Positions 1-57,545 of a stretch of 64,000 nucleotides of DNA are shown here, piece after piece. The notes below the pieces were generated by a model. It saw nothing but the letters and a program-made list of their open reading frames with translations, did no database searches and was not told the DNA's origin. The DNA lies in contig JBAYJV010000001.1 in assembly GCA_041664925.1 (NCBI GenBank), positions 56,121-120,120 of the forward strand, given 5' to 3'. Position 1 is the first letter of the stretch; each line of letters starts with the position of its first letter. Both the position numbers and the translations under genes were made by a program. This DNA is from Minisyncoccota bacterium. GTDB taxonomy: Bacteria > Patescibacteriota > Minisyncoccia > JBAYJV01.

Positions 1-2936
1 GCTCTTTCATGAGGAGAGCGCAATTCAAGAATTTCTTCTACGCGAGGAAGGCCCTGAGTAATATCTCCTTCACCGGCAACGCCACCAGCATGAAAAGTTC
101 TCATTGTTAACTGAGTTCCCGGTTCTCCAATTGATTGGGCGGTAATAATACCGACAGCTGTTCCCATGCTCACAAGTTTATTCTTTCCTAAATCATAACC
201 AAAGCATTGCTGACATAATCCTTCATGTGCTTTGCAGGTAAGTGGAGAACGAATTTTTATTTTTTCAATGCCTGTTGCAGCAATTTTTTTGGCCGTACTT
301 TTATTAATAAGTTCACCGGCTTTTGCAATCACTTCTTTCCCATTTTTGATATCTTCTAGAATCACGCGACCAACTAGGCGTTCATCAAAACCAAGTCCAA
401 TGTCTTCAGTATCTTTAGCTCGAAGCTCAAATCCTTCAGTATCACCACAGTCTTCCTCCCGAATAATAATATCCTGACAGACATCAACTAAACGGCGCGT
501 TAAGTAACCAGCTACCGCTGTTTTAAGAGCAGTGTCGGTTGTTCCTTTTCTAGCACCGTGGGTCGAAATGAAGTATTCAAGAACATTGAAGCCTTCTTTG
601 AAGTTTGATAAAACTGGCAGTTCAATAATTTCTGAGGCTGGATTAATAACAAGACCCTTGATACCCGACATTTGGTTGGTTTGTCCCCACGATCCACGAG
701 ACCCAGAATCAAATATTTGGAAAATTGGACCATTTTTTGGTAAAACTTGCGGTACCAATTCAGAAATCTTATCAATCGCAGCAAACCAAACATCAATAAC
801 CTTAATCTTTCTTTCTTCGTCAGTGAGAAGACCTCTCTGATAATGACTATTCAATTCTTCAACTTGTTTTCCAGCGTCACCAAGAATTTTTCCTTTTTCA
901 GGAGGAGTAATCAAGTCATCAAACCCCCAGCTAATACCAGACTTAGTTGCATAATGAAAGCCTGTTTCCTTAATAGTATCCAATAATGGCGCTAGGATTT
1001 CGTGGTCATAGTTATCTATAATGTCAGCGACAATCTTTTGAAGAGCTTTTTTACCTAAGTTCTGATTTACGAATTGATATTCTTTCGGCAATTTCTCATT
1101 GAAAATAATTCTTCCCAAACTTGTTTCTATCATTTCTTGCGTCTTTGGATTAGGTACCTTAATCTTTGCTCTAAGATTTATGTGTCCAAAATTATGAGCA
1201 ATATAAGCTTCCTCTACTGAACTAAAAACAGATCCTTCTCCCTTAAGTCCCTCTTCTATTCTTGTCATCCAATAAACGCCCAAAACAATATCCTGAGTTG
1301 GATTAGCAATTGGATGGCCAGTTGCTGGTTTCAAGAGATTATTAGAGGACTTCATTATAGTTGATGCTTCTTCCTGGGCCTGTTTTGATAATGGCAAATG
1401 AAGCGCCATCTGATCACCGTCAAAGTCAGCATTAAACGCCTGACAAACCAACGGATGAAGTTTAATGGCATTGCCTTCAATAAGAATCGGTTTAAAGGCT
1501 TGAATACTGAGACGATGAAGAGTAGGGGCACGATTCAAAAGAATGTACTTATCTTTAATAACTTCTTCCAGCGAATCCCAAACCTCGCTCGATCCTTCTT
1601 CAATATAATGAGTTGCTGCCTTAATGTTTGGCGCTAACTCTTTCTCATAGATAAGTTTATGAATAACAAATGGTTTAAAAATTTCAAGAGCCATTCTCTT
1701 AGGAACACCGCATTCATCGAATTTAAGTTCTGGTCCAACGACGATAACGGACCTACCCGAATAATCAACGCGTTTTCCCAAAAGATTTTGACGGAATCGC
1801 CCTTGCTTCCCCTTAAGCATGTCAGCTAAAGATTTTAGGGCACGGCTTTGAGCGCTGACAGTTCTAACTTCTTTTCCTTTTCTAGCAGAATTATCAATGA
1901 GTGCGTCCACGGCTTCCTGAAGCATGCGTTTTTCATTGCGCAAAATAACCTCAGGGGCTTTAAGCTCTTGAAGCCTTTTTAATCGATTATTGCGATTAAT
2001 AACGCGGCGATATAAATCATTAACATCTGAAGTAGCAAAACGACCACCATCAAGTTGAACCATTGGTCTTAGATCTGGTGGCATAACCGGCAAGGCTGTG
2101 ATAAACATCCATTCCGGCCTCATGTTGTTAGTAATAAAATTTTTGATTAACCCTAATTGCCTGAGAAGCTTTTTTCTTTGAAGACCAGCCGCTTTTTCTA
2201 AGTGAGCATTAACGTCGGCAATCTTTTGTTCGAGATCAATTTCATCCATCATCTTTCGAAGCGCTTCAGCACCCATGCCAGCTTCAAACACTTCAGCATA
2301 TTTGCGACTGAGACTAAAATATTCTATTTCAGAAATCACTTGTCCTTTTCTTAATCGCCTCAACTCTTCGGCTGCCTTATTTCTTTTAAGTTCTAGCTTT
2401 TTCAATTCTTTTGTTTTCTCTTTTGCAGAAAATTTTTCTTTCTCCAATTCTTTCTTTTTGTTTTTATATTCAGAGTCAATATCTTTTAAGGCTTCTTTGC
2501 GGGCTTCACTATCAACGCTCATGACAACATAGCTTGTAAAATAAATAACTTTTTCAAGATCTTTAAGAGCAATATCCAAAAAGAGGCTGATTTTTGATGG
2601 AACACCGCGCAAAAACCAAATATGTGAAACAGGAACAGCGAGTTTAATATAGCCCATCCTCTCTCGCCTTACCGATGCGGTTGTTACTTCAACCCCGCAT
2701 TTGTCACAGACAATACCTTTATAGCGAATTTTCTTATACTTTCCACAATAACATTCATAATCCTTTTCTGGACCAAAAATGCGCTCGCAAAAAAGACCAT
2801 CCCTCTCTGGTCTATGAGTTCGATAATTAATAGTCTCCGGTTTGGTAATTTCGCCATAACCCCAATCTAAAATCTCATCCGGAGAGGCAATTTTTAACTT
2901 TAGAGCGTCGAAGTCTTGAATTGTTTCTTCTATCAT
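1..2936 (-). CDS. rpoC: DNA-directed RNA polymerase subunit beta' (partial; C-terminus lies beyond the window start)
   Basis: The minus-strand translation from the ATG at 2936 reads [56 protein letters not shown]. The far end contains [20 protein letters not shown]. It sits immediately downstream of rpoB. No long six-frame ORF is listed because the frame runs off the window. Confidence 0.9.
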
Positions 2937-2944
2937 GGAAGTTT

Positions 2945-5900
2945 TTATTGATTATTTTCTTTTTTTACTTGATCCTTTTTCGCGACCTTTTTGCCAACAA
3001 GCTCAACGGAAAAACCAAGACTTCTGAGCTCATTGAGTAAGACATTGAAGGATGCTGGAATGTTTGGGCTTTTAATTTCTTGTCCCCCGATAATAGACTC
3101 GTAAGCTGCTGCTCTGCCCAAAACATCATCTGATTTAATAGTAAGCATTTCTTGAAGAGTATATGCTGTCCCATAGCCTTCTAACGCCCATACTTCCATT
3201 TCACCAAATCTTTGGCCACCAAACTGAGATTTGCCTCCGAGAGGTTGTTGGGTAATCAAAGAATAAGGACCAATTGAACGCATATGAATCTTGTCGCTTA
3301 CAAGATGATTAAGTTTCATCATGTAAATTTGACCAACTGTACTTGGCTGACCAAATTCTTTACCTGTCCTTCCGTCGCGAAGTTGGAATTTACCGCTTGG
3401 TGAAAAACCTTGATCTGTTAAAGATTTTCTAATTTCTTCTTCAGTGATACCGGACAATGACGGAGTTAAAATTCTGCAATTCAAAGATTTTGCTACCATA
3501 CCCATATGGGTCTCAAGAATTTGTCCGATATTCATACGAGATGCAACTCCAAGTGGATTTAAAACTATATCAACTGGCGTACCGTCTTCTAAATACGGCA
3601 TATCCTCAACTGGCAAGATTTTGGAAATAACACCCTTGTTTCCATGACGTCCAGCTAATTTATCTCCAGCTTCAATCTTTTTAAATTGAGCGACTTCAAC
3701 TTGAATGCTTTTAATAACACCCGATGATAATTTATCTCCCTTATCCTGAGAGAAAACACGAACACCAATGACTCTTCCTTTTTTACCATGCGGAAGGGTT
3801 AGCGAACTATCTTTAACATCTCGGGCTTTATCGCCAAAGATTGATCTCAATAATCTTTCTTCGGCCGTTAAATCAGTTTCTCCTTTTGGAGAAATTTTAC
3901 CAACTAAGATATCTCCTTGTTTAACTTCAGCGCCAATTCGCACAATACCTTCCTCGTCAAGATCTTTAAGTCTTTCTTCTCCAACATTTGGAATGTCAGG
4001 CGTAGTAATTTCAGGACCAAGTCTTGTGTCACGGACATCTACCGTAAAATCTTCGATATGAATTGAACTGAAACGATCATCGCGAACAACCTTTTCTGAA
4101 ATAATTACCGCGTCTTCAAAATTGAATCCTTCCCATGACACAAAAGCAACCAAAAGATTTTGACCAAGCGCCAAAGTGTCTTTATCAATAGCTGGGCCTT
4201 CAGCGATCACTTGCCCTTTAGTAATTTTATCGCCTTTTCTTACAAGAGTTCTTTGATGAATGCAAGTATATTGGTTTGATCTTCTAAAGTTGGCGAGATG
4301 ATATTCTTTATTCTTTTTTGTTTTATCGCTTAAAATTACAACCTTGCTAGCATCAGCCTCAATTACCTTTCCCGATTCATCAGCTACCAAAATCATACCT
4401 GAATCAAGAGCAGTTCTTTTCTCCATCCCCGTTCCTACTAAAGGCGCCTGAGGATTAATACACGAAACAGCTTGGCGTTGCATATTTGAACCCATCAAAG
4501 CACGGTTTGCATCATCATGCTCCAAAAAAGGAATTAATGATGTCGCAACTGAAATTGATTGATTGGGAGCGACATCCACAAGATCAACTTTACCAACTTC
4601 AATTATTCCTGGTTCTGATTTTATGCGCGCCTCAATTTTTTTGTTTTTAAATTTACCTTCGACATCACGAGGTTCGCCCGCATGAGCAATAACATATTTT
4701 TCCTCCTCGTCCGCAGTCAGATAAACTACTTCGTCTATAACGCGTCCATTTTTAACACGATAATAAGGAGTGATTAAAAATCCATACTGGTTTAGCGAAG
4801 CATAAGTTGAAATATGATTGACTAGTCCGATATTGGGACCTTCTGGAGTTTGAATCGGACAAAGGCGTCCATAATGACTTGGATGAACATCACGAACTTC
4901 AAAACCAGCCCTTTCTTTCGTAAGACCACCTGGACCCATAGATGAAACACGACGCTTATGTTCAAGTTCCGCCAAGGGATTGACTTGATCCATAAACTGC
5001 GATAATCGAGACGAAATGAAAAATTCCCGCACAACGGTGGCCAATGGTCTAATATTGATAAGTTGGGCGGGTGTAAGTGTATATAAATCAAGGGTGCTCA
5101 TTCTATCTTTAATGATTCTAATCATACGAGCCAATCCAACCTGAACTCGGTTTTGCAAAAGTTCGCCAACGCATTTAACGCGGCGATTGCTCAAATGATC
5201 AATATCGTCAGGGCGCGCCTGAGGATTTTGATTGAGTTTAATAATTTCCTTAACAATCAAAACAATATCGTTGATTGAGAGAATTCTGTCGTCAAAAGTA
5301 ACTTTCTTTGTTTTGTCGGTCTTACTGCTTCCCGGCTTGTGCAATCCAAGTCTTTGATCAAGTTTCCAGCGACCAACTTCAGAAATATCATATCTTTCAA
5401 AACTGAACATCGCCTTCAAAAGACTTTTAGCATTATCAACTGTTGCCAATTCACCTGGACGAATTCTGCGATAAACTTCGATCAATCCATCGCCCTGATT
5501 ATTAGTAATATCTTTTTCTAAAGTCTGGCCAATATAATCAACTTCTCCGCCGAGTAAAACATCTCTAAAAACTTCTTTAACATTTGCCATTGAATCAATG
5601 AAGGGTTTTTCCCCTTCTCTAATACCAGAAAATGCTTTCAAAAAGGCAGTCACAGCAATCTTTCTTTTTCTGTCAACTTTAATGTAGAGAACGCCGTGGT
5701 TATCTGTTTCAATTTCAAGCCAAGCGCCGCGATTCGGAATGATCTTGGCTCCGAAATAATGACGGCCATTTTCATATCTTGAATTAAAAAACACGCCAGG
5801 TGATCTAGCGAGTTGAGAAACAATAACACGTTCAACGCCATTTAAAACAAAAGTTCCGCGATCGGTCATCAGCGGAAAATCTCCCATAAAAACATCTTGC

Positions 5901-11129: not shown

Positions 11130-12944
11130 TTATTGGCTCGCTTCAAAAACAATATCATACCAACTTTTTGCTCCTTGATATTTATTGTCATTCGTTTCAA
11201 GCCATGTTTCAATTTTCACACACGCGCCAACACTACTATCCAACCTCCCCATATTTACCATTCCCAAATCTTTGATGAATCCCGTCTTTACCATTTCAAA
11301 AGATAAATTCTGGTCCTCGCAATTCTCCGTTTGCTCTATTGTTCCGTCGAGATAATGCCCTTTAACATCTTCTATCAATTCATCAATCGTCACTTCGCCC
11401 TCTCTTTTAATTTTATTGTCCGAATCGTCGTCAAATTCAATTTCATAAGTATGCTCTTCTCCTTCAGAAATTCCGTCAGAAAAATCTTCAAGCTCCGATG
11501 TCGAATCCGATGCGTAATAGGTTGCAAAATCAAAACTATCATCATTGTTTAGTCCTGTGATTTTTATTTGGTATTGGCCATCTTGAGGATCAGGAATATG
11601 GACAATTTTTGGTCCGCTTGGATCGGAAGGCTCTTCAAATTCGGCAAAGGGAATTTCCGATGTTTCACTGGAAATAATTTTTCCATCAGGAGCAATAATC
11701 TCAACTTTCGCATTTTCTGTGAAAAGAAAATCAAGACTATCTTCAAATTCCCTAGGCGCTGGCGCGATATCAACATCGGACAATTCAATCGGCGGACCAG
11801 AGATCGGAGTAGGAAATAGTTCAGAAATTGGCGGAGTCGGGTGTCTTAACCAATAGATGACTTCTTCAATCGCTCGATGAGGTAGAGCAGTGTGTTTGGT
11901 TGTTTCAAAAAAACCCATTCTTTGATTACCAACCTCAGAAAATGCCTCTGGTCCCGGATTAGGATCAAAGTCAGGATCTGTTTCTGGCGCTGGCATTCCT
12001 ATAATATCTGAAAGTAAAACCGATTTTTTCAAAACCCGATTATCTCCTTCCAAATCATTTTTTGCCGGCGGAAAAGGGCAAGGATAGCCATCCTGCCAAG
12101 TTGTCGCTCCAGGCATTATTGGTTCAACTAAAATATTGCCAACTGTTGACTCGCCATCGCCTCCTAAATTACTAAAATAAACTCTCGATTGAAGATTCAT
12201 GGTTCCCATCCAATTATTCAAATCTTCCAAAAAAAGGTTTTGGCCATCTGGATTATCTGGCATAAATGGCGTTGAACCCCCTTGTAAATCCACCTCTCTT
12301 AAATATTCGTAGGTCGGCATTAATTCCCCCAGCGAAGGCACATATTCGTGAATCAATTCATAATTTGATTCGGTCTGTGGATAAACCATTTGGCGCAAAT
12401 ACCAGAGATAGGAATCTAAGACATATTTATAAGATTTTCCCCAATTTTTTGGAATTACTCCACCCTCCCAAGGACTATAAGCGTCAGAAGAGCCATTGTT
12501 GGGAACACCTAGCATGACCAATCGCTCAACATCATTTTCAAATTGATCTGATTGAATATAATAACGCGACACCAATCCGCCCATTGAATGCGCCACAATA
12601 TCCACTTTTTCTGCCCCTGTGAGCATTTTCACTTCATCGATTTTTGCCTTTAAAAATTGAAAGGCGGAATCTCTGTTTGATTTCCGCCAATCATAAAAAG
12701 CGACATATACATCAAACCCTTCATTTTCCAGAGTTTGGATTAAGGAATCATAAACATGAACTCCCGGGAAAAATCCCCATGAATCGCTAAAAATATTATT
12801 AACCATCACATGCCAGTTCCACGAAGCGTTAATTCCCGGCACCAAAATAACCGGATTATGATTTTGGCTGCCGGCAAATGATCCAAAACCAAAATTTCCC
12901 AGAATTAAAAAAATAACTATAAGTATAGTTTTTATTCTTTTCAT
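11130..12944 (-). CDS. Secreted alpha/beta-hydrolase (lipase/esterase-like) with an acidic C-terminal extension
   Basis: Signal peptide, a GxSxG nucleophile elbow DIVAHSMGGLVSRYY, and a D/E-rich C-terminal region. Confidence 0.65.
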   Translation of the reverse strand: MKRIKTILIVIFLILGNFGFGSFAGSQNHNPVILVPGINASWNWHVMVNNIFSDSWGFFPGVHVYDSLIQTLENEGFDVYVAFYDWRKSNRDSAFQFLKAKIDEVKMLTGAEKVDIVAHSMGGLVSRYYIQSDQFENDVERLVMLGVPNNGSSDAYSPWEGGVIPKNWGKSYKYVLDSYLWYLRQMVYPQTESNYELIHEYVPSLGELMPTYEYLREVDLQGGSTPFMPDNPDGQNLFLEDLNNWMGTMNLQSRVYFSNLGGDGESTVGNILVEPIMPGATTWQDGYPCPFPPAKNDLEGDNRVLKKSVLLSDIIGMPAPETDPDFDPNPGPEAFSEVGNQRMGFFETTKHTALPHRAIEEVIYWLRHPTPPISELFPTPISGPPIELSDVDIAPAPREFEDSLDFLFTENAKVEIIAPDGKIISSETSEIPFAEFEEPSDPSGPKIVHIPDPQDGQYQIKITGLNNDDSFDFATYYASDSTSELEDFSDGISEGEEHTYEIEFDDDSDNKIKREGEVTIDELIEDVKGHYLDGTIEQTENCEDQNLSFEMVKTGFIKDLGMVNMGRLDSSVGACVKIETWLETNDNKYQGAKSWYDIVFEASQ

Positions 12945-26749: not shown

Positions 26750-28555
26750 TCACCAACTTCCGCCGCCACCGCCGCCACCGCCGCCACCAGAAAATCCACC
26801 GCCACCGAAACCGCTTGCTCCACCGGCAGCACCTTGGCCAGGTGAGATAATCGAATTGTTTGCGTTTGAAGTAAAACTATTAAGACTAGAAACAAAAAGC
26901 ATTGAATTGAATGATGATCCCGTTGAGCCCTGATACCAATCAGGCGGATTGATATAAATATCTTTGAATTGTTTCGCCCATTCTTTTTCTAATCCAAAAA
27001 CCATGGCATAGGGTAAAAGTTTTTCAAAGAGTTGGGGATTTTTTTCCGGCGCATTGTGAAACTTAATTCGATCCGTTTCCGCAATCCTAATATATTCTCT
27101 AAGCCCCAAAACTTCTTCTCTGGTAATCACTCCTTTTTGCGTCCGTTTATGCATTAAAGCTGTAAAAATAATAAGAATAATAATGGTTGCGACGACACTA
27201 AAAATAGTCATCGCCCCGCCAGTTCCGTGAATAATGCTAACATAAAAAATTATAAATACAATAAATATAATTCTTAATGAAAACACGAAGGAAAATAATT
27301 TCTTCCCTGAGAAATCATTTGGTTTAGTCGCCACATATCCCTTGTCAAAAAGCAATTTATTGACCTTCTTTTTAATACTTGCCAGGCTTGCCTGAAATGT
27401 CGTTTTATCAATATCTGAAAGCTTAATGGTTTTGACTTTCTTGCCATCTTTTTCTACAGTATCTGCATCTTCAAATAACGCTTCCATCAATTTTTGGTCA
27501 AAATCATTTTCTAAATCATCTTCATCTTTTAATGCTTCTAAAAGATAGTCTTTGCTTTTGAAAATAAGTGTTTTCTTTTCAATCTGGGTAATCTTTAAAT
27601 ATCCTTGAATAGCCAAGTTGATGATTTCAGCGGATAAATCCCGATTATCAACCCGGTAATCTAGAAACGTACCGACTTCAATCGGCGTTAGATTGTCCGG
27701 CGCTTCATATTGGGGAATAATTGTTCCTCGTCCTTTGGGATCGCGACCTTTTTTCCACCAAAAACAAAATTCAATTAAGAAAACTATAATCGGTAAAAAA
27801 ATGATTTTATTATCCCATAAAACATTGGATGATTTTTGCAAAGCGCTCGGCTCAATCACAATGCCTTTGGGAAATCCGACAACAATCGTCAAGCCTTCTT
27901 TGGCGCCTAAGTTATTCTGGAGAAAACTGATTTCTCGAATAGAGGCAACTTCCAAAGCGCTTTCTGGTTTTGAGATTAAAGAGCACTTTTCTTTACTTCC
28001 TAGAATTCCAAAAAAACAATCTGTTTGCAGTTCTGGATCAGCTATGCTTTCAGGTAATATTATTTTTGCCGATGCTTGATTGATGGAAATTCCCCATTCG
28101 TTACCCGTTGCATTCCAATAAAGCTCATCCGAATCTTTGAAATAATTAATCGCGCGATCGATCTTATATTTAATAATGTAGGTCTTAATGCCAGAGATTA
28201 GCTTATTCGGATCGCCAATTTTTATGCTTTTATCATTACCTTGATCGGATAAGGTAAATTGATAAGGATTGTTATTTTCGTCAATTACATTAATATCCGA
28301 AATCCCTAAGTTAAAATTCCCGCCACGCGCCTGATAATGAATGTGAATATTGCGATAAATGCCATGGCGTTGTAAATCATCAAAATTATAAAGAATCCTT
28401 TCTTCAACACTGATCCTGCTATCCCGATTAATCTTAATCACAACGTCAAAATTATCAATTTTTTCTTCTGCAAAAACTCCCAAAGAAAAACACAATCCAA
28501 AAAATATAAATAATGAAATAATAATCTTTTTCATATCCTTTATTTTAGCAGACAA
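26750..28555 (-). CDS. Membrane protein with an N-terminal extracellular domain, TM helices and a glycine-rich C-terminal tail. DUF2207-like by architecture.
   Basis: Signal/TM region, two internal TM helices, and a C-terminal GQGAAGGASGFGGGGFSGGGGGGGGGGSW. A terminator hairpin atatctggcaaaatgccggatat plus T-run follows downstream. Confidence 0.4.
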   Translation of the reverse strand: MSAKIKDMKKIIISLFIFFGLCFSLGVFAEEKIDNFDVVIKINRDSRISVEERILYNFDDLQRHGIYRNIHIHYQARGGNFNLGISDINVIDENNNPYQFTLSDQGNDKSIKIGDPNKLISGIKTYIIKYKIDRAINYFKDSDELYWNATGNEWGISINQASAKIILPESIADPELQTDCFFGILGSKEKCSLISKPESALEVASIREISFLQNNLGAKEGLTIVVGFPKGIVIEPSALQKSSNVLWDNKIIFLPIIVFLIEFCFWWKKGRDPKGRGTIIPQYEAPDNLTPIEVGTFLDYRVDNRDLSAEIINLAIQGYLKITQIEKKTLIFKSKDYLLEALKDEDDLENDFDQKLMEALFEDADTVEKDGKKVKTIKLSDIDKTTFQASLASIKKKVNKLLFDKGYVATKPNDFSGKKLFSFVFSLRIIFIVFIIFYVSIIHGTGGAMTIFSVVATIIILIIFTALMHKRTQKGVITREEVLGLREYIRIAETDRIKFHNAPEKNPQLFEKLLPYAMVFGLEKEWAKQFKDIYINPPDWYQGSTGSSFNSMLFVSSLNSFTSNANNSIISPGQGAAGGASGFGGGGFSGGGGGGGGGGSW

Positions 28556-28566
28556 TTTCTATTACA

Positions 28567-28600
28567 TCAAAAAAGGAGATTAGCGCGCTAACTAATCTCC
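28567..28600 (-). terminator. Strong intrinsic terminator ending micro-ORF module 1
   Basis: Minus strand reads ggagattagttagcgcgctaatctcc followed by TTTTTT. Confidence 0.7.
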
Positions 28601-28627
28601 CGTACTTTGCTTAAAAGAACTGCAAAC

Positions 28628-28660
28628 TTACATGTCGTCTTCTTCGGCCATTCTTTTCAT
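28628..28660 (-). CDS. Micro-ORF MKRMAEEDDM (10 aa)
   Basis: AAGGAGGcaaag ATG. Its paralogue at ~29533-29590 encodes MKRMAEEDNMRSRETDII. Confidence 0.35.
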   Translation of the reverse strand: MKRMAEEDDM

Positions 28661-28840
28661 CTTTGCCTCCTTAGAGACCAATAATCGTTGCTTTCCTCAT
28701 GCGCTCCTCCTTGATGCTTTTGATTACACTTTTAGAGAGATACTTTTCTCATTCTCATTTTTTTCCTCCTTGATACTAGAGTCCCGCCGGAAGTATTTTC
28801 ATTTCTCTTTTCTTAGGTTAAAACACCGATTTTTTTCATT

Positions 28841-28990
28841 TTATCCAATCCCTCCCGTTGACGAACATCCATCATCACTGTCATGTGGACCAGAACCATA
28901 TAGATGATTAACAAGACTCACTAATACTTCAGCAGCATCAGAGCTAACATATACTGGTTCCCCGCTGGAATCGTAGGGCCCGTTTGTCAT
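28841..28990 (-). CDS. Micro-ORF, 49 aa: MTNGPYDSSGEPVYVSSDAAEVLVSLVNHLYGSGPHDSDDGCSSTGGIG
   Basis: GAGGATGA lies upstream. It is the longest member and shares the GPxD/SG-rich character of its neighbours. Confidence 0.35.
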   Translation of the reverse strand: MTNGPYDSSGEPVYVSSDAAEVLVSLVNHLYGSGPHDSDDGCSSTGGIG

Positions 28991-29143
28991 AGCTAATCAT
29001 CCTCACCCGTCATTCCCTCGAGAGTGTTCTGTCCACCCTCGCCATCTCTCGGTCCGTTCACCATAGAACACCCCTACTCGCTGTCATCCGGACCACTGGT
29101 CCGATCGTCAGGTCCTCTGTTTTGCATTTTCTCTCCTTGTCGC

Positions 29144-29260
29144 CTATCCGCCGAAAGGAAAATCGTTCTTCATCCAAGAACTTTTGTTGCCACGCACGCC
29201 CCCATCCCTGGGTCCGCGCATCATCCCGTCATCGCCAAAACTCTTGCCGCCTCTTTTCAT
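29144..29260 (-). CDS. Micro-ORF, 38 aa: MKRGGKSFGDDGMMRGPRDGGVRGNKSSWMKNDFPFGG
   Basis: AAGGAGGaagaa ATG. Confidence 0.35.
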   Translation of the reverse strand: MKRGGKSFGDDGMMRGPRDGGVRGNKSSWMKNDFPFGG

Positions 29261-29270
29261 TTCTTCCTCC

Positions 29271-29372
29271 TTAATGCTTTTCGACTTCGTTGTATGCCTG
29301 ACTTATCGCAGTAAGTTGCGCTTTGGCAAAAGCCAAACCCTTCCGATTGTTTCTCTTGGTGCACCGACACAT
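29271..29372 (-). CDS. Micro-ORF, 33 aa: MCRCTKRNNRKGLAFAKAQLTAISQAYNEVEKH
   Basis: AAGGAGGtttct ATG. Basic peptide. Confidence 0.35.
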   Translation of the reverse strand: MCRCTKRNNRKGLAFAKAQLTAISQAYNEVEKH

Positions 29373-29495
29373 AGAAACCTCCTTAGTCCCGACTTTGTCT
29401 GCTTTTTTACTAAGCCATCTTCGCTATCATTTTTCCTCCTTGGACCCATACTCACTCTGTATAATTATATTACCACTATATTTAAAAAAGGCAAT

Positions 29496-29529
29496 ACAAA
29501 AAAGGAGATTAGCGCGCTGACTAATCTCC
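29496..29529 (-). terminator. Strong intrinsic terminator ending micro-ORF module 2. Same hairpin family as 28567-28600.
   Basis: Minus strand reads ggagattagtcagcgcgctaatctcc followed by TTTTTT. Confidence 0.7.
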
Positions 29530-29783
29530 TATGCTTTACTTAAAAGAACTGCAAACTATATGATATCCGTTTCGCGACTCCTCATATTGTCTTCTTCGGC
29601 CATTCTTTTCATCTTCGCCTCCCTAGAGAACCATTGCTCTTTTCATTTGCTCCTCCTTAAAGAGCAGTCTCGTACTAGCCAATTAATCGCCCGCTTTGAC
29701 GCTTCTTTGCGTTTTCACGGGGATCACCTCGCTCCTTTTGAAGTTTGGTTTACTTGACTCTACGAGCCTCTCCTTTCACCTCC

Positions 29784-29876
29784 TTAGAGGCAAAACGGAT
29801 CGTCGTCACCATCGTCCGAACCGTCTTCGTCGTCCCCTGAACCGCTAGTATCTCTGTTTACTAAACAACTCTTCAT
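29784..29876 (-). CDS. Micro-ORF, 30 aa: MKSCLVNRDTSGSGDDEDGSDDGDDDPFCL
   Basis: ATG in the module 2 transcript. Acidic, with a Cys near each end. The SD is weak. Confidence 0.25.
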   Translation of the reverse strand: MKSCLVNRDTSGSGDDEDGSDDGDDDPFCL

Positions 29877-29948
29877 TATGACACTTAGAAGAACTAAAAC
29901 TATAACAAGCCGTCTTTTTTGTGATGTGTTTTTCGTGTTTATCCCTCC

Positions 29949-30002
29949 TTACGCCTCTGCTTTAATGCGATAAAGCCCTGTTTCTTTTCCTACCCTTTCC
30001 AT
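29949..30002 (-). CDS. Micro-ORF, 17 aa: MERVGKETGLYRIKAEA
   Basis: GAGGTGAtttcc ATG. Confidence 0.3.
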   Translation of the reverse strand: MERVGKETGLYRIKAEA

Positions 30003-30180
30003 GGAAATCACCTCGTATTAATTTTAACGCGTTTTTAAAAAAAGAAAAGAGCAAAAAACAAATTAAAAATTTAAAGTGCAAATTGTAAAATCAAAGTTTA
30101 AAATTTAAAGTTAGTCTTGAAGTCAAAATTCTTAACTTATAATTTTAATTTTGAACTTTTAACTTACTACTTTTAACTAA

Positions 30181-30204
30181 AAAACGGGGGTATGTCCCCG
30201 TTTT
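30181..30204. terminator. Bidirectional intrinsic terminator downstream of secF
   Basis: Perfect 10-bp stem aaaacggggg-tatg-tccccgtttt. Confidence 0.65.
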
Positions 30205-30243
30205 AGTAGTATAAATGTTCTGAATTATTAAACCGAAATAATT

Positions 30244-31152
30244 TTACGCCTTATGAGTTCTGTGTTTCCAATTTTCCCAGGTCACCAACAGGGCGCTTGC
30301 GATAAAGATTGAAGAATAAGTACCGAAGAAAATTCCAAAAATTAGCGCCAGAACAAAATCTTTTATTGTTTCACCGCCAAAAAACATAATCGCAACCAAA
30401 GCAAGTTCTGTTAGCAGTGAAGTATTGATTGACCTAATTAATGTCTGAGAAATGCTTCTATTAACAATCTCTTCAAATGTTTCTTTGGCGCTATGACCCA
30501 AGTTTTCTCTGATTCTATCAAAAACAACAATCGTGTCATGAACCGAATAACCAAAAATCGTCATCAAGGCAGCTACGAAAGGCAAGCCAACTTCAATATT
30601 TGAAAATCTACCCAAAATTGAAAAAATACCAGTAACAATCAGAAGATCATGAATCAAAGCAATAACTGCTGTCGTGCCGTATTTCCAAGATGCCACCGGC
30701 CAAGAAACTCTGCGAAAAGCCCAGGCAATATAACTAATGATACCGACAGCGCTCAGAAAAACTGCCCATAGAGTTTTACTCTTTAGTTCTCTTCCAACAA
30801 CCGGCCCAATCGAATCATATCTTTTTTCTTCAAGAGTTTGTTTTTTTGAGGTTGCTAGCGTTCTTAAATCTGTCAAAACTTTTTGATGAGTTGCTTCGTC
30901 AGATTGCTGGAAGCGTAACATAAAACTGTCATCTCCAACTGGCTGAATAATGAGACTTAATAATTTCTGACCTTCTAGTGCGTCTTTAATTTCTTGAACT
31001 GAAACTTCAGTCGTATTTGAAAATTTTACTTCAAGAAGACTACCACCAGTAAAATCAATACCGAACTTGAGCCCCCACATTGAAAGACTAACAATACTAA
31101 TGATTGAAAGAATTCCAGAAAAGATAAAGAATATTTTTCTATATTTAATCAT
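30244..31152 (-). CDS. secF: Protein translocase subunit SecF
   Basis: LKFGIDFTGGSLLEV and a SecF-type multi-TM C-terminal region. It overlaps secD by 8 nt. Confidence 0.9.
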   Translation of the reverse strand: MIKYRKIFFIFSGILSIISIVSLSMWGLKFGIDFTGGSLLEVKFSNTTEVSVQEIKDALEGQKLLSLIIQPVGDDSFMLRFQQSDEATHQKVLTDLRTLATSKKQTLEEKRYDSIGPVVGRELKSKTLWAVFLSAVGIISYIAWAFRRVSWPVASWKYGTTAVIALIHDLLIVTGIFSILGRFSNIEVGLPFVAALMTIFGYSVHDTIVVFDRIRENLGHSAKETFEEIVNRSISQTLIRSINTSLLTELALVAIMFFGGETIKDFVLALIFGIFFGTYSSIFIASALLVTWENWKHRTHKA

Positions 31153-56371: not shown

Positions 56372-56444
56372 CAGGGGCGGCAGGACTTGAACCTGCAACC
56401 ACTGGTTTTGGAGACCAGTACTCTGCCAATTGAGCTACGCCCCT
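56372..56444 (-). tRNA. tRNA-Trp (CCA)
   Basis: Cloverleaf aggggcg/cgcccct acceptor, anticodon loop cuCCAaa, T-loop ttcaagt. No encoded CCA. Confidence 0.85.
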
Positions 56445-56479
56445 TCAAAGTAATGAGTCTTGCTCATTACTATGGTTTG

Positions 56480-56638
56480 CTATTTTTTTGTTTCTTTGTG
56501 CAAAGTGTGTTTTCTATCCCAAGGACAATGTTTCTTTAATGATAATTTTTCTTGGATAGTTTTTTTGTTTTTTCGAGTATTATAATTTACTCTTCCGCAC
56601 TCCGTACATTTCATTTTAACAATACTTTTTTGTGGCAT
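56480..56638 (-). CDS. rpmG: 50S ribosomal protein L33 (52 aa)
   Basis: [52 protein letters not shown] carries the L33 signature. It is below the six-frame ORF length cutoff. Confidence 0.8.
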
Positions 56639-56642
56639 GTTT

Positions 56643-57095
56643 TTAATTAATTAATTTCCATTCTCCAGTTTTTAAATCTACTTCATAAATCGACACATTG
56701 GCTCCCATGTATGGATCGCTACCGGAAACTAATTTCCACATATCCTTTCCCGAGTGGAAGAAACCGATAACTTGCCATAGATCATCTTTTTTTTGAAGTA
56801 ATAATTGTCTAGTATTTTGATTATCTCCATACTCAACATACAAACGAGATTTATCTATAAGACTAAAACGGATCAGATGCCAACTTCCACCAAGTACCGG
56901 CTTTTCTGGAGAGAGTTGATTGATATTCTTTGAGATGGAATCTATCGTTTCTTTTGTTAGAGGAACACTCACTGAATTGTCTTCGCGAAATAGCGTTGAC
57001 TCTGGAGTTTCTTTTTTTATCCTACTTAAACAATAGATTGTCCCGCCAATAACCAAAATAATAATAATCAAGATAACAATATTTCTTTTTCCCAT
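56643..57095 (-). CDS. Membrane-anchored hypothetical protein
   Basis: N-terminal TM segment [14 protein letters not shown]. Confidence 0.4.
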
Positions 57096-57150
57096 TCTTT
57101 TTTTACTACAAGTATGAGCCTACTGAGGATTGTTTTTTCTTATTTGGAAC

Positions 57151-57223
57151 AAGCCCACGATCGGGATTGGACCGATGACCTCCCCCTTACCAAGGGGGTG
57201 CTCTACCAACTGAGCTACATGGG
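57151..57223 (-). tRNA. tRNA-Thr (GGU)
   Basis: Acceptor gcccatg/cgtgggc (one G-U pair), D-arm gctcagttggtagagc, anticodon stem ccccc/ggggg with loop uuGGUaa. Confidence 0.75.
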
Positions 57224-57230
57224 CCCTTGT

Positions 57231-57313
57231 ATGGGTAGGGAGGGATTTGAACCCCCGAAGCCATAAGGCGCGAGATTTACAGTCTCGTCCGATTGACCAC
57301 TCCGGCACCTACC
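57231..57313 (-). tRNA. tRNA-Tyr (GUA), long variable arm
   Basis: Acceptor gggtagg/cctaccc, anticodon loop cuGUAaa, type II variable arm, T-loop ttcaaat. Confidence 0.85.
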
Positions 57314-57350
57314 CGTTTAAGTAGCTAAGACTTTATCTAATATATAAATA

Positions 57351-57403
57351 TGCCTCGTCCGATTGACCCCTGCCTGTCGGCAAACAGGACTCCGGCACCT
57401 ACC
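57351..57403 (-). pseudogene. tRNA-Tyr 5' fragment (acceptor and D-arm) interrupted by a 20-nt CCTGCC..GGCAGG-family hairpin
   Basis: gggtaggtgccggagt[cctgtttgccgacaggcagg]ggtcaatcggacgag is otherwise identical to the 5' 35 nt of tRNA-Tyr. Confidence 0.5.
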
Positions 57404-57406
57404 CAG

Positions 57407-57447
57407 TTGGAGCCGTCCCTGAGACTCGAACTCAGAACCTACTGTTT
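57407..57447 (-). other. 3' half of a second tRNA-Thr(UGU)-like gene (anticodon-stem 3' strand, T-arm, acceptor ggacggc, encoded CCA)
   Basis: aaacagtaggttctgagttcgagtctcagggacggctcca. Its acceptor is complementary to the 5' half at 57607-57640. Confidence 0.5.
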
Positions 57448-57473
57448 ATCCCGCACCACGCTTAGTAAGTCCA

Positions 57474-57545
57474 AGCCGAGAGTGAGAATCGAACTCACAA
57501 CCTACTGTTTACAAAACAGTTGCTCTACCGTTGAGCTATCTCGGC
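57474..57545 (-). tRNA. tRNA-Thr (UGU), intact copy
   Basis: gccgaga/tctcggc acceptor, D-arm gctcaacggtagagc, anticodon loop uuUGUaa, T-loop ttcgatt. Confidence 0.8.

Follow-up and report, generated by a model that had tools for sequence, protein, structure and literature searches.

The DNA analysed here is a window of 64 kb, to which all positions refer unless a related locus is named, from the contig of a Paceibacterota metagenome-assembled genome (MAG), a member of the Candidate Phyla Radiation (CPR). About 1.5 kb of it (28560-30060) is occupied by an array of approximately 16 very short open reading frames (ORFs) of 6-54 codons, arranged in two adjacent modules and all encoded on the minus strand. 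On that strand the order is secD, secF (30244-31152), the array and a gene for a DUF2207 membrane protein (26750-28555), and 35 of the 39 long ORFs in this part of the window have the same orientation. Under standard annotation the 1.5 kb are nearly empty, with gene calls for only two of the ~16 ORFs; comparative evidence indicates that they are dense in selected coding sequence, down to ORFs of 7-10 codons. The array region, including the frame designated ORF C, is identical in three independent assemblies, its G+C content rises to 0.55 as compared to ~0.35 in the surroundings, and its transcript strand is purine-rich. An array of minus-strand frames led by Shine-Dalgarno (SD) motifs, in two modules with a shared terminator, had been proposed earlier from the sequence alone; all 16 frames of that original prediction lie where it had placed them, and both terminator hairpins were confirmed as parts of a duplicated 3' unit. 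For comparison, related loci (designated L0xx) were gathered by a SecF search and contig look-ups.

Module 1 (from ~30020 to 29497) is preceded by a putative promoter region (30021-30051; CTCTTTTCTTTTTTTAAAAACGCGTTAAAAT) with a TAAAAT -10 box, which is invariant in the window, L016 and L038, and is also kept in L020 and L037, which have a single module. The first cistron, ORF E (29949-30002; 17 amino acids (aa), MERVGKETGLYRIKAEA), follows the SD GAGGTGA, and its stop codon forms part of the next SD (TAAGGAGG). Its orthologues in L016 and L038 (the latter with ATA at the start position) exhibit proportions of non-synonymous differences (pN) of 0.10-0.18 versus 0.36-0.55 for synonymous ones (pS). 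ORF C (29784-29936; 50 codons) encodes a protein with a basic N-terminus, a single hydrophobic segment and an acidic D/G-rich tail (50-54 aa across the lineages). Here AAGGAGG at 29950 is followed after 7 nucleotides (nt) by ACG at 29936, the aligned counterpart of the ATG that opens the 54-aa orthologue in L016; the two ORFs differ at 7, 3 and 18 first, second and third codon positions (pN 0.09, pS 0.55). The frame beginning with MKSCLVN, previously listed as an ORF of its own, corresponds to the last 30 codons of ORF C and starts at an internal ATG without an SD. Next comes element X (29659-29776), a conserved stretch of ~117 nt that probably forms a structured RNA, and then ORF F (29623-29646; 7 aa, MKRAMVL), with the SD AAGGAGG and with a stop inside the following SD (TAGGGAGG). 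Its orthologues in L016 and L038 (MKRAMIVSF, 9 aa) are separated from each other by four synonymous and no non-synonymous changes, and the version in the window is set apart from both by an in-frame 6-nt deletion. ORF G (29556-29612; 18 aa, MKRMAEEDNMRSRETDII) is a copy of the decapeptide ORF that terminates module 2, with a 3' extension; the MKR-x-x-EED-[DN]-[MV] family to which both belong is present in the window (two copies), L016, L028 and L038, and the tail RSRETDII of G persists as MKSRETDII in the remnant found in L024. The module ends with a conserved 3' untranslated region (UTR; TTTGCAGTTCTTTTAAG...) and terminator 1 (29497-29555; hairpin 29503-29530 plus T6).

Module 2 (from ~29465 to 28567) has a promoter-like region of its own (29464-29483; AAATATAGTGGTAATATAAT) with a TATAAT box, presumed to be active, which is identical in the window and L016 and near-identical in L038. 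It was missed by a consensus scan, because it has no -35 match; what the scan did report within the array are weak promoter-like sites on the plus strand (9 of 12), all of them outside ORF C. The candidate ORFs J (29410-29430; 6 aa, MIAKMA; SD AAGGAGG), for which no orthologue was found, and K (29271-29372; 33 aa, MCRCTKRNNRKGLAFAKAQLTAISQAYNEVEKH; SD TAAGGAGG), the stop of which lies inside the next SD, make up a 170-nt insertion that is specific to the window and bounded by AAGGAGG repeats. ORF A (29144-29260; 38 aa) encodes a basic, Gly-rich peptide with a C-terminal core GG-x-RGNKSSW...DFP-x-GG and has orthologues in L016, L020, L037 and L038. Ungapped comparisons revealed 2/0/7, 5/0/13 and 3/0/8 differences at the three codon positions (pN 0.05-0.08 versus pS 0.23-0.54), and the segment RGNKSSW...DFP-x-GG is invariant. 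The two paralogues that follow, P1 (29074-29127; 17 aa, MQNRGPDDRTSGPDDSE) and P2 (28993-29064; 23 aa, MVNGPRDGEGGQNTLEGMTGEDD; weak SD), share a GP-x-D motif; a relative of P1, MKDSGPDDSE, is encoded in module 1 of L016, and P2 has the positional counterpart MTYGPEDGEGGGFDHDFECSPRDGG in the same locus.

ORF B (28841-28990; 49 aa, MTNGPYDSSG...GPHDSDDGCSSTGGIG), acidic and rich in G, P, D and S, starts 2 nt past the stop of P2, and both JGI and NCBI records contain a gene call for it. Orthologues are present in L016, L020, L037 and L038; in L038 there are two separate ORFs, B1 and B2, of which B in the window is a fusion. Between L016 and L038 its pN is 0.16 and its pS 0.58, and conservation is found at both termini and not in a leader. 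A public gene call in L038 (1252-1539, protein P0125) reads through an in-frame TAG and fuses B1 and B2 into 95 aa; the locus does not translate to this protein under genetic code 11, so that it is a gene-caller artefact. ORF I (28813-28839; 8 aa, MKKIGVLT) begins 1 nt past the stop of B (TAAAATG) and has positional counterparts in four relatives (MRRIVLI, MMKRSLI, MKRRVL), in which a stop is always present (TAA, TGA or TAG). It is followed by the candidate ORF I2 (28776-28802; 8 aa, MKILPAGL), with a weak SD and no clear orthologue, and by ORF H (28732-28758; 8 aa, MRMRKVSL; SD AAGGAGG), orthologous to MRVRKVFL in L016 and MRVRKVLL in L038; among these sequences the final Leu is encoded by CTC, TTG or CTT and the stop is TAA or TAG. 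ORF F' (28671-28700; 9 aa, MRKATIIGL) is a paralogue of F with a stop inside the next SD, and the terminal decapeptide ORF G' (28628-28660; MKRMAEEDDM) differs between the window and L016 by two synonymous and one non-synonymous change, with TAA replaced by TAG. A conserved 3' UTR with terminator 2 (28567-28627; hairpin 28574-28601 plus T6) completes the module, directly before the DUF2207 gene. Both terminators consist of an 11-bp stem and the T-run, and they are included in the duplicated 3' unit (stretches of 61 and 52 nt with 92% and 88% identity, respectively) that corresponds to the last ~130 nt of each module, i.e. ORF F, ORF G, the 3' UTR and the terminator.

The peptides fall into a few compositional types. 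B, P1, P2 and the tail of C have acidic G/P/D-rich segments in common (GP-x-D, D-x-DDG), and the N-terminal motif M-x-N-G-P-x-D of B, P1 and P2 bears out their earlier description as paralogues. The tiny peptides either follow the pattern M-(K/R)-(K/R)-hydrophobic (F, H, I) or are acidic (G, MKR-x-x-EED-D/N-M), and a hydrophobic N-terminal segment is present only in ORF C. Comparison of nine peptides with Pfam and NCBIfam yielded no match, the best NCBIfam hit being a model of FxLD lanthipeptides with E = 0.37, far under the cutoff. Among 5.8 billion protein clusters, B has no homologues outside the clade and C only its orthologue in L016. Two long repeat proteins retrieved in an exhaustive profile search with B against 1.84 billion representatives were judged spurious, as they matched by short repeated GGP[FY]-type segments, and a weak match of A to the Gly-rich tail of DUF2207 proteins is compositional. 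Such a Gly-rich C-terminal tail (...GGGGFSGGGGGGGGSW) is all that remains of the DUF2207 gene in short ORFs of L020 (3092-3388) and L039 (5030-5119), the rest having been deleted. When every peptide was compared by tblastn with the window and each of the loci, no paralogues outside the arrays were detected. Literature searches brought up no account of arrays of this type in CPR, and the original prediction was right in recognizing no described system, since neither the homologue searches nor Pfam, NCBIfam and Rfam provided a family for the array.

The arrangement of SDs distinguishes the array from the remainder of the window. Of the 29 AAGGAGG motifs on the minus strand of the 64 kb, nine are inside 28560-30060, and GGAGG is absent from the plus strand of the array region. 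The pattern GGAGG-N4-9-ATG occurs eight times in the region, far beyond the 0.35 +/- 0.60 copies expected from 1000 dinucleotide shuffles (maximum 3), and at most three times in every other 1.5-kb stretch of the window, so that the excess of SD-ATG pairs suspected earlier holds against a null of matched composition. Seven of the window's ten copies of T(AA/AG/GA)GGAGG, in which a stop codon overlaps an SD, are inside the array. The SDs of the array are complementary to the 16S rRNA tail over up to 10 nt, and those cistrons that are not preceded by an SD-embedded stop start 1-17 nt past the preceding stop codon. This group includes P2, B, I and I2, with weak or distant SDs and starts 1-10 nt after the preceding stop. 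All mini-ORFs open with A-rich codons. Folding of whole modules gave stabilities near those of shuffled sequences (z = -1.3 and -2.0), which, together with the purine-rich transcript strand, fits a messenger RNA and not a globally structured RNA; folding by partition function was uninformative with respect to SD accessibility. The earlier statement that no ORF of at least 60 aa exists in the region does not hold literally, since the plus strand has five ORFs of 65-119 aa that overlap it. We rejected them as genes, as shuffled sequences have a mean of 108 aa and a maximum of 228 aa, plus-strand SDs are lacking and the frames break differently in relatives; the long stop-free runs follow from the pyrimidine-rich composition of the antisense strand.

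Six related metagenomic lineages possess a homologous array at this position, and a seventh has a remnant. Two modules are located downstream of secF in L016 (the closest relative; 94% SecF identity) and in L038 (~93%, partial SecF), a single module in L020 (89%) and L037 (88%), and one divergent module in L028 and L034 (84%); in L024 (88%) only a remnant with MKSRETDII and the terminator is left, and L032, L039 and L041 (65-69%) have no array. A SecF scan of GTDB species representatives (~50% SecF identity) detected no array either, a DNA-pattern scan of metagenomes for the conserved 3' unit returned no loci beyond the known contigs, and a viral contig scan returned nothing. A cluster of AGGAGG motifs in L007, an unrelated Patescibacteria MAG, was dismissed as a homologue: it belongs to a different kind of array (870-3550, minus strand), in which each of the tandem small genes has an AGGAGG SD and encodes, in alternation, an ordinary membrane protein (65-156 aa) or a protein of ~65-75 aa starting with MKVEIFS. 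The distribution among relatives thus describes an array that is fixed in position, limited to a narrow clade and highly variable in content.

Variation affects whole cassettes, gained and lost at a repeated junction, TAAGGAGG-N5-ATGAAAAGA, that is spanned by four copies of a 29-nt repeat. L038 lacks ORF C, and the gap falls exactly between two TAAGGAGG motifs; in L020 and L037 the SD-ATG of E is joined straight to A, with deletion of what else belongs to module 1 and of the module 2 promoter; module 1 of L016 includes additional GP-x-D mini-ORFs. The gene downstream of the array varies as well: it is DUF2207 in the window, L016 and L037, while L020 has a sigma-like gene there and L028 a gene for an unrelated protein of 477 aa. 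At three positions a near-cognate codon occupies a conserved start (ACG at 29936 for C in the window, ATA at 731 of L038 for E, and ACA at ~2384 of L028), in each case 7-8 nt behind a strong SD and with the downstream frame and stop intact; these codons represent either weak initiation from a codon other than AUG or a loss of the gene that is very recent.

For eight ORFs (E, C, F, G, A, B, H and I) there are orthologues in two to five lineages in which start, frame and stop are kept, apart from the near-cognate starts of C in the window, of E in L038 and in L028. Stop codons swap among TAA, TAG and TGA but are retained throughout, and the length of most indels is divisible by three. The pooled in-frame pN/pS is 0.30 for ORFs of at most 17 aa and 0.43 for those of at least 33 aa, as compared to 0.59-1.38 in shifted frames of the same alignments. 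With one independent pair per family, differences are concentrated at third positions both in the tiny ORFs (17 of 26, P = 8e-4) and in those of 33-54 aa (49 of 82, P = 9e-7), and the ORFs are kept across a divergence at which about half of the synonymous sites have changed. It is hence the ORFs themselves, and not merely their SD motifs, that relatives conserve. From the retention of starts, stops, frames and amino acids, and from the excess of third-position changes, we conclude that the ORFs of the array behave as translated, selected small-protein genes would be expected to, and not as decoys, pseudogene debris or purely non-coding RNA.

Element X lies between the SD-containing stop of the ORF before it and the SD of F. 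The predicted fold comprises a 20-bp interrupted outer helix around two hairpins, the minimum free energy (MFE) structure being the same as the centroid, with an MFE of -42.3 kcal/mol (z = -4.44) that none of 200 shuffles reached. X was detected only in the three lineages that have module 1, and these differ in it by seven substitutions (~3% pairwise, versus 16-19% in the flanking ORFs and ~50% at synonymous sites). Five of the seven are at unpaired positions (P = 0.036) and two convert A-U to G-U pairs; in these three sequences all 120 pair cells stay paired, with no double compensatory change. A covariance model recovered no further copies in 246 kb of window and loci, and X has no match in Rfam: at E <= 10 the stretch 28300-30400 yielded four chance-level matches, none of them at X. 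The only matches to reach the gathering threshold among the 4227 Rfam models are four tRNAs elsewhere in the window, clustered at 56372-57545 on the minus strand. The frame VKTQRSVKAGD, previously listed among the micro-ORFs, is indeed present (29683-29718), and it is located within X, which had been overlooked. X is probably a cis-acting structured RNA, i.e. a stabiliser or a translational operator, and it constitutes a candidate for a new structured RNA motif. Like the stabilising stem-loops of the repetitive extragenic palindromic (REP) or puf/malEFG type, it places a stable structure between cistrons of what would be a polycistronic messenger; in contrast to them it is a multi-helix element of 117 nt, has loops as conserved as its stems, occurs once per array and belongs to no Rfam family.

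Taken together, the array is best explained, in our opinion with good though not full confidence, as a pair of neighbouring polycistronic operons on the minus strand, the cistrons of which are true small-protein genes. We infer transcription of each module from its own conserved promoter-like region up to its copy of one intrinsic terminator. Ribosomes would initiate at the very strong SDs (AAGGAGG), translate 6-54 codons and terminate at a stop that in many cases is embedded in the following SD (T-AA/AG-GGAGG) or else precedes the following start by 1-17 nt; this arrangement suggests that translation is relayed by coupling of termination to reinitiation. Among the predicted products, C would cross the membrane once and carry an acidic tail, A would be a basic peptide rich in Gly, and B, P1 and P2 would be acidic and rich in G, P and D; in addition there would be several peptides described as 7-10 aa long (E, F, G, H and I). 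X, between C and F, would probably act in cis on the stability of the messenger or on translation of the downstream cistrons, and recombination at the TAAGGAGG-N5-ATGAAAAGA junctions would account for lineage-specific gain, loss and fusion of cassettes. Given the composition of the peptides and the membrane anchor of C, our guess is that they are associated with the cell envelope or bind cations.

Several observations weigh against this explanation. None of the peptides has a known homologue or domain that could indicate a function. The comparison covers about six closely related lineages, a test of any single tiny ORF comprises a handful of substitutions, pairwise comparisons are partly non-independent, and alignments guided by protein sequence favour the annotated frame. 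ORFs J, K and I2 are without orthologues, and the near-cognate codons at three conserved starts suggest that some cistrons could be decaying. In a weak predicted hairpin with no convincing covariation, the 3' UTR pairs with the GAAGAAGA codons of G, and the conservation of G may therefore be partly due to RNA-level constraint. The G+C content at third codon positions is 0.45 in the array ORFs versus 0.31 in the genome; this moderate increase is not diagnostic, and we did not accept it as a sign of foreign origin.

Four other explanations were considered. The extraordinary density and strength of the SDs, nine AAGGAGG in 1.5 kb and some able to pair with the 16S tail over 10 nt, could indicate a sponge for ribosomes or their anti-SD, or a ribosome-loading RNA, in which SDs bind the 30S subunit or an SD-binding protein such as CsrA and the ORFs just release the ribosomes; as CPR cells contain very few ribosomes, such an RNA could matter. 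The A-rich codons opening all mini-ORFs favour initiation, and one AAGGAGGTGA (29785) is not followed by a usable start codon. The original prediction had inferred that selection acts on translation initiation and had listed decoy ORFs and a ribosome-loading RNA among the possibilities. We consider such an RNA improbable and the inference unsupported, because amino acids are under purifying selection even in ORFs of 7-10 aa, with only synonymous divergence in a 9-aa ORF and a Leu retained through CTC, TTG and CTT, and because stops and frames are maintained. CsrB/RsmZ-type sponges are likewise terminator-ended transcripts with many GGA-containing SD-like motifs, but the array matches neither them nor other Rfam families, folding of the modules did not reveal SD motifs presented in hairpin loops, and here the motifs are followed by a start codon (ATG at 4-9 nt) and an ORF evolving as coding sequence. 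We attach a similarly low probability to a special case of the coding interpretation, in which the array would supply precursors of modified or exported peptides resembling bacteriocins, signals or ribosomally synthesized and post-translationally modified peptides (RiPPs). Tandem paralogous short peptides with a shared M-x-N-G-P-x-D start and a variable remainder, several Gly-Gly ends (DFPFGG, STGGIG) and fast lineage-specific turnover would suit it. Nevertheless, Pfam annotation of ~10 kb on either side identified SecD/SecF, DUF2207, a Sigma70_r4/HARE-HTH protein, DUF8128 and a VirD4-like ATPase, and no maturation or modification enzyme, peptidase-containing ATP-binding cassette (ABC) or other exporter, or immunity gene; the peptides belong to no Pfam or NCBIfam precursor family (the E = 0.37 hit being the closest), look acidic and disordered and not amphipathic or cationic, and have no leader-core architecture. 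The earlier suggestion of small secreted or modified peptides is disfavoured by the same neighbourhood and by the restriction of the hydrophobic N-terminal segment to ORF C.

Decay, either of a pseudogenised longer gene or of functionless young ORFs spread by duplication of SD-ATG units, would be consistent with the narrow clade, the absence of the array at 65-69% SecF identity, frequent gain and loss including the complete loss in L024, the three near-cognate starts and the restriction of J, K and I2 to the window. It is very unlikely, given a pN/pS well below 1, starts and stops kept despite ~50% synonymous change, SDs that are still perfect, and the lack of a longer homologue of any peptide among the 5.8 billion clusters or the 1.84 billion representatives. 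Finally, in the window, L016 and L037 the array lies immediately before DUF2207, a position that invites comparison with a cis-regulatory leader, i.e. an attenuator or stalling sensor for DUF2207, in which the tiny MKR/MRxR ORFs would be stalling peptides; R/K-x-R/K, present in the tiny ORFs (MRVRKV...), is a drug-dependent stalling motif in erm-type leaders. That each module is closed by a strong terminator (11-bp stem, T6) ~27 nt past the last stop, that an alternative antiterminator pairing has no convincing support from covariation, that the array is kept with other downstream genes (L020, L028) and that DUF2207 is kept without an array in L024 make this explanation extremely unlikely.

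Among known systems, the small-protein operons proposed here resemble most closely the staphylococcal psm-alpha operon, with four peptides of ~21 aa, each with its own SD, and the aureocin A70 operon, with four peptides: in these, too, tandem paralogous very short ORFs with individual ribosome-binding sites share one transcript and are missed by gene callers. Their products are amphipathic or cationic membrane-active toxins served by ABC exporters, while the peptides of the array are acidic and G/P/D-rich or only 6-10 aa long, and the array has ~16 cistrons, stops fused to the next SD and no exporter nearby. A eukaryotic parallel is offered by the insect gene tarsal-less (tal), also known as polished rice (pri) or mille-pattes, in which one messenger carries repeated paralogous ORFs of 11-32 aa with a shared short motif, seemingly non-coding by ORF length yet conserved at the peptide level; initiation is different and there is no homology, so that this is an analogy only. 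Minigenes and leaders, such as lambda bar, the E-peptide MRMLT encoded in 23S rRNA and the erm and cat leaders, are SD-led ORFs of 2-20 codons whose translation is itself consequential, and ORF H (MRMRKVSL) superficially resembles them. They are, however, single ORFs tied to a regulated gene or to tRNA drop-off, whereas the array has many ORFs, strong terminators and amino-acid conservation and is not bound to one downstream gene. By analogy, the array can be regarded as a polycistronic small-peptide operon of the psm-alpha kind (with tal/pri as a more distant parallel), presumably with unusually tight translational coupling, and in no described family.

A bolder extension, which is conceivable but which we regard as rather doubtful, is a cassette-built "micro-peptide battery", in which selected peptides of 7-10 residues would be translated in a relay through SD-embedded stops, reshuffled at TAAGGAGG...ATGAAAAGA and controlled by X. 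If this were true, the peptides would be among the shortest bacterial gene products with selection at the amino-acid level, and in an ultra-small, ribosome-poor cell the RNA could also serve as a sensor or sink of translation capacity. In a genome-reduced CPR bacterium, for which kilobases are costly, a lineage-specific, quickly reshuffled battery of micro-proteins suggests an actively selected function, possibly related to the envelope or to host interaction. What sets the array apart is its density and the selection on ORFs of 7-10 aa within a narrow uncultivated clade. It offers a natural case for the birth, duplication and loss of very short ORFs, for reinitiation at SD-embedded stops and for near-cognate starts behind very strong SDs.

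Some features of the surrounding DNA are also worth recording. The spacer between the terminator of secF (30179-30204) and the promoter of module 1 is extremely A+T-rich in the window (30055-30175), with repeated motifs of the TTTAAA/TTTTAAACTTTGATTTT type; in relatives it has different A/T tracts that are equally repetitive, e.g. TTTTCAA repeats in L028. At the other end of the array, the stretch from the terminator to the next gene is conserved among relatives only and not in the window (L016 8270-8449, L024 5330-5512, L037 1545-1700, L038 1750-1958 and L020 2960-3060); it comprises direct repeats of GGGGA/TAAA/GGGA together with the motif AAAAGGGACATAGAATATT...TTTTGYTAAAAT, as well as long hairpins such as TGTCATTCTGA...TCAGGATGACG. 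In L016, just downstream of DUF2207/DUF5701, a reverse-transcriptase gene (RVT_1, minus strand) adjoins an accessory gene of the bAvd type (11269-12681), a pair that is not there in the window and that looks like a diversity-generating retroelement.

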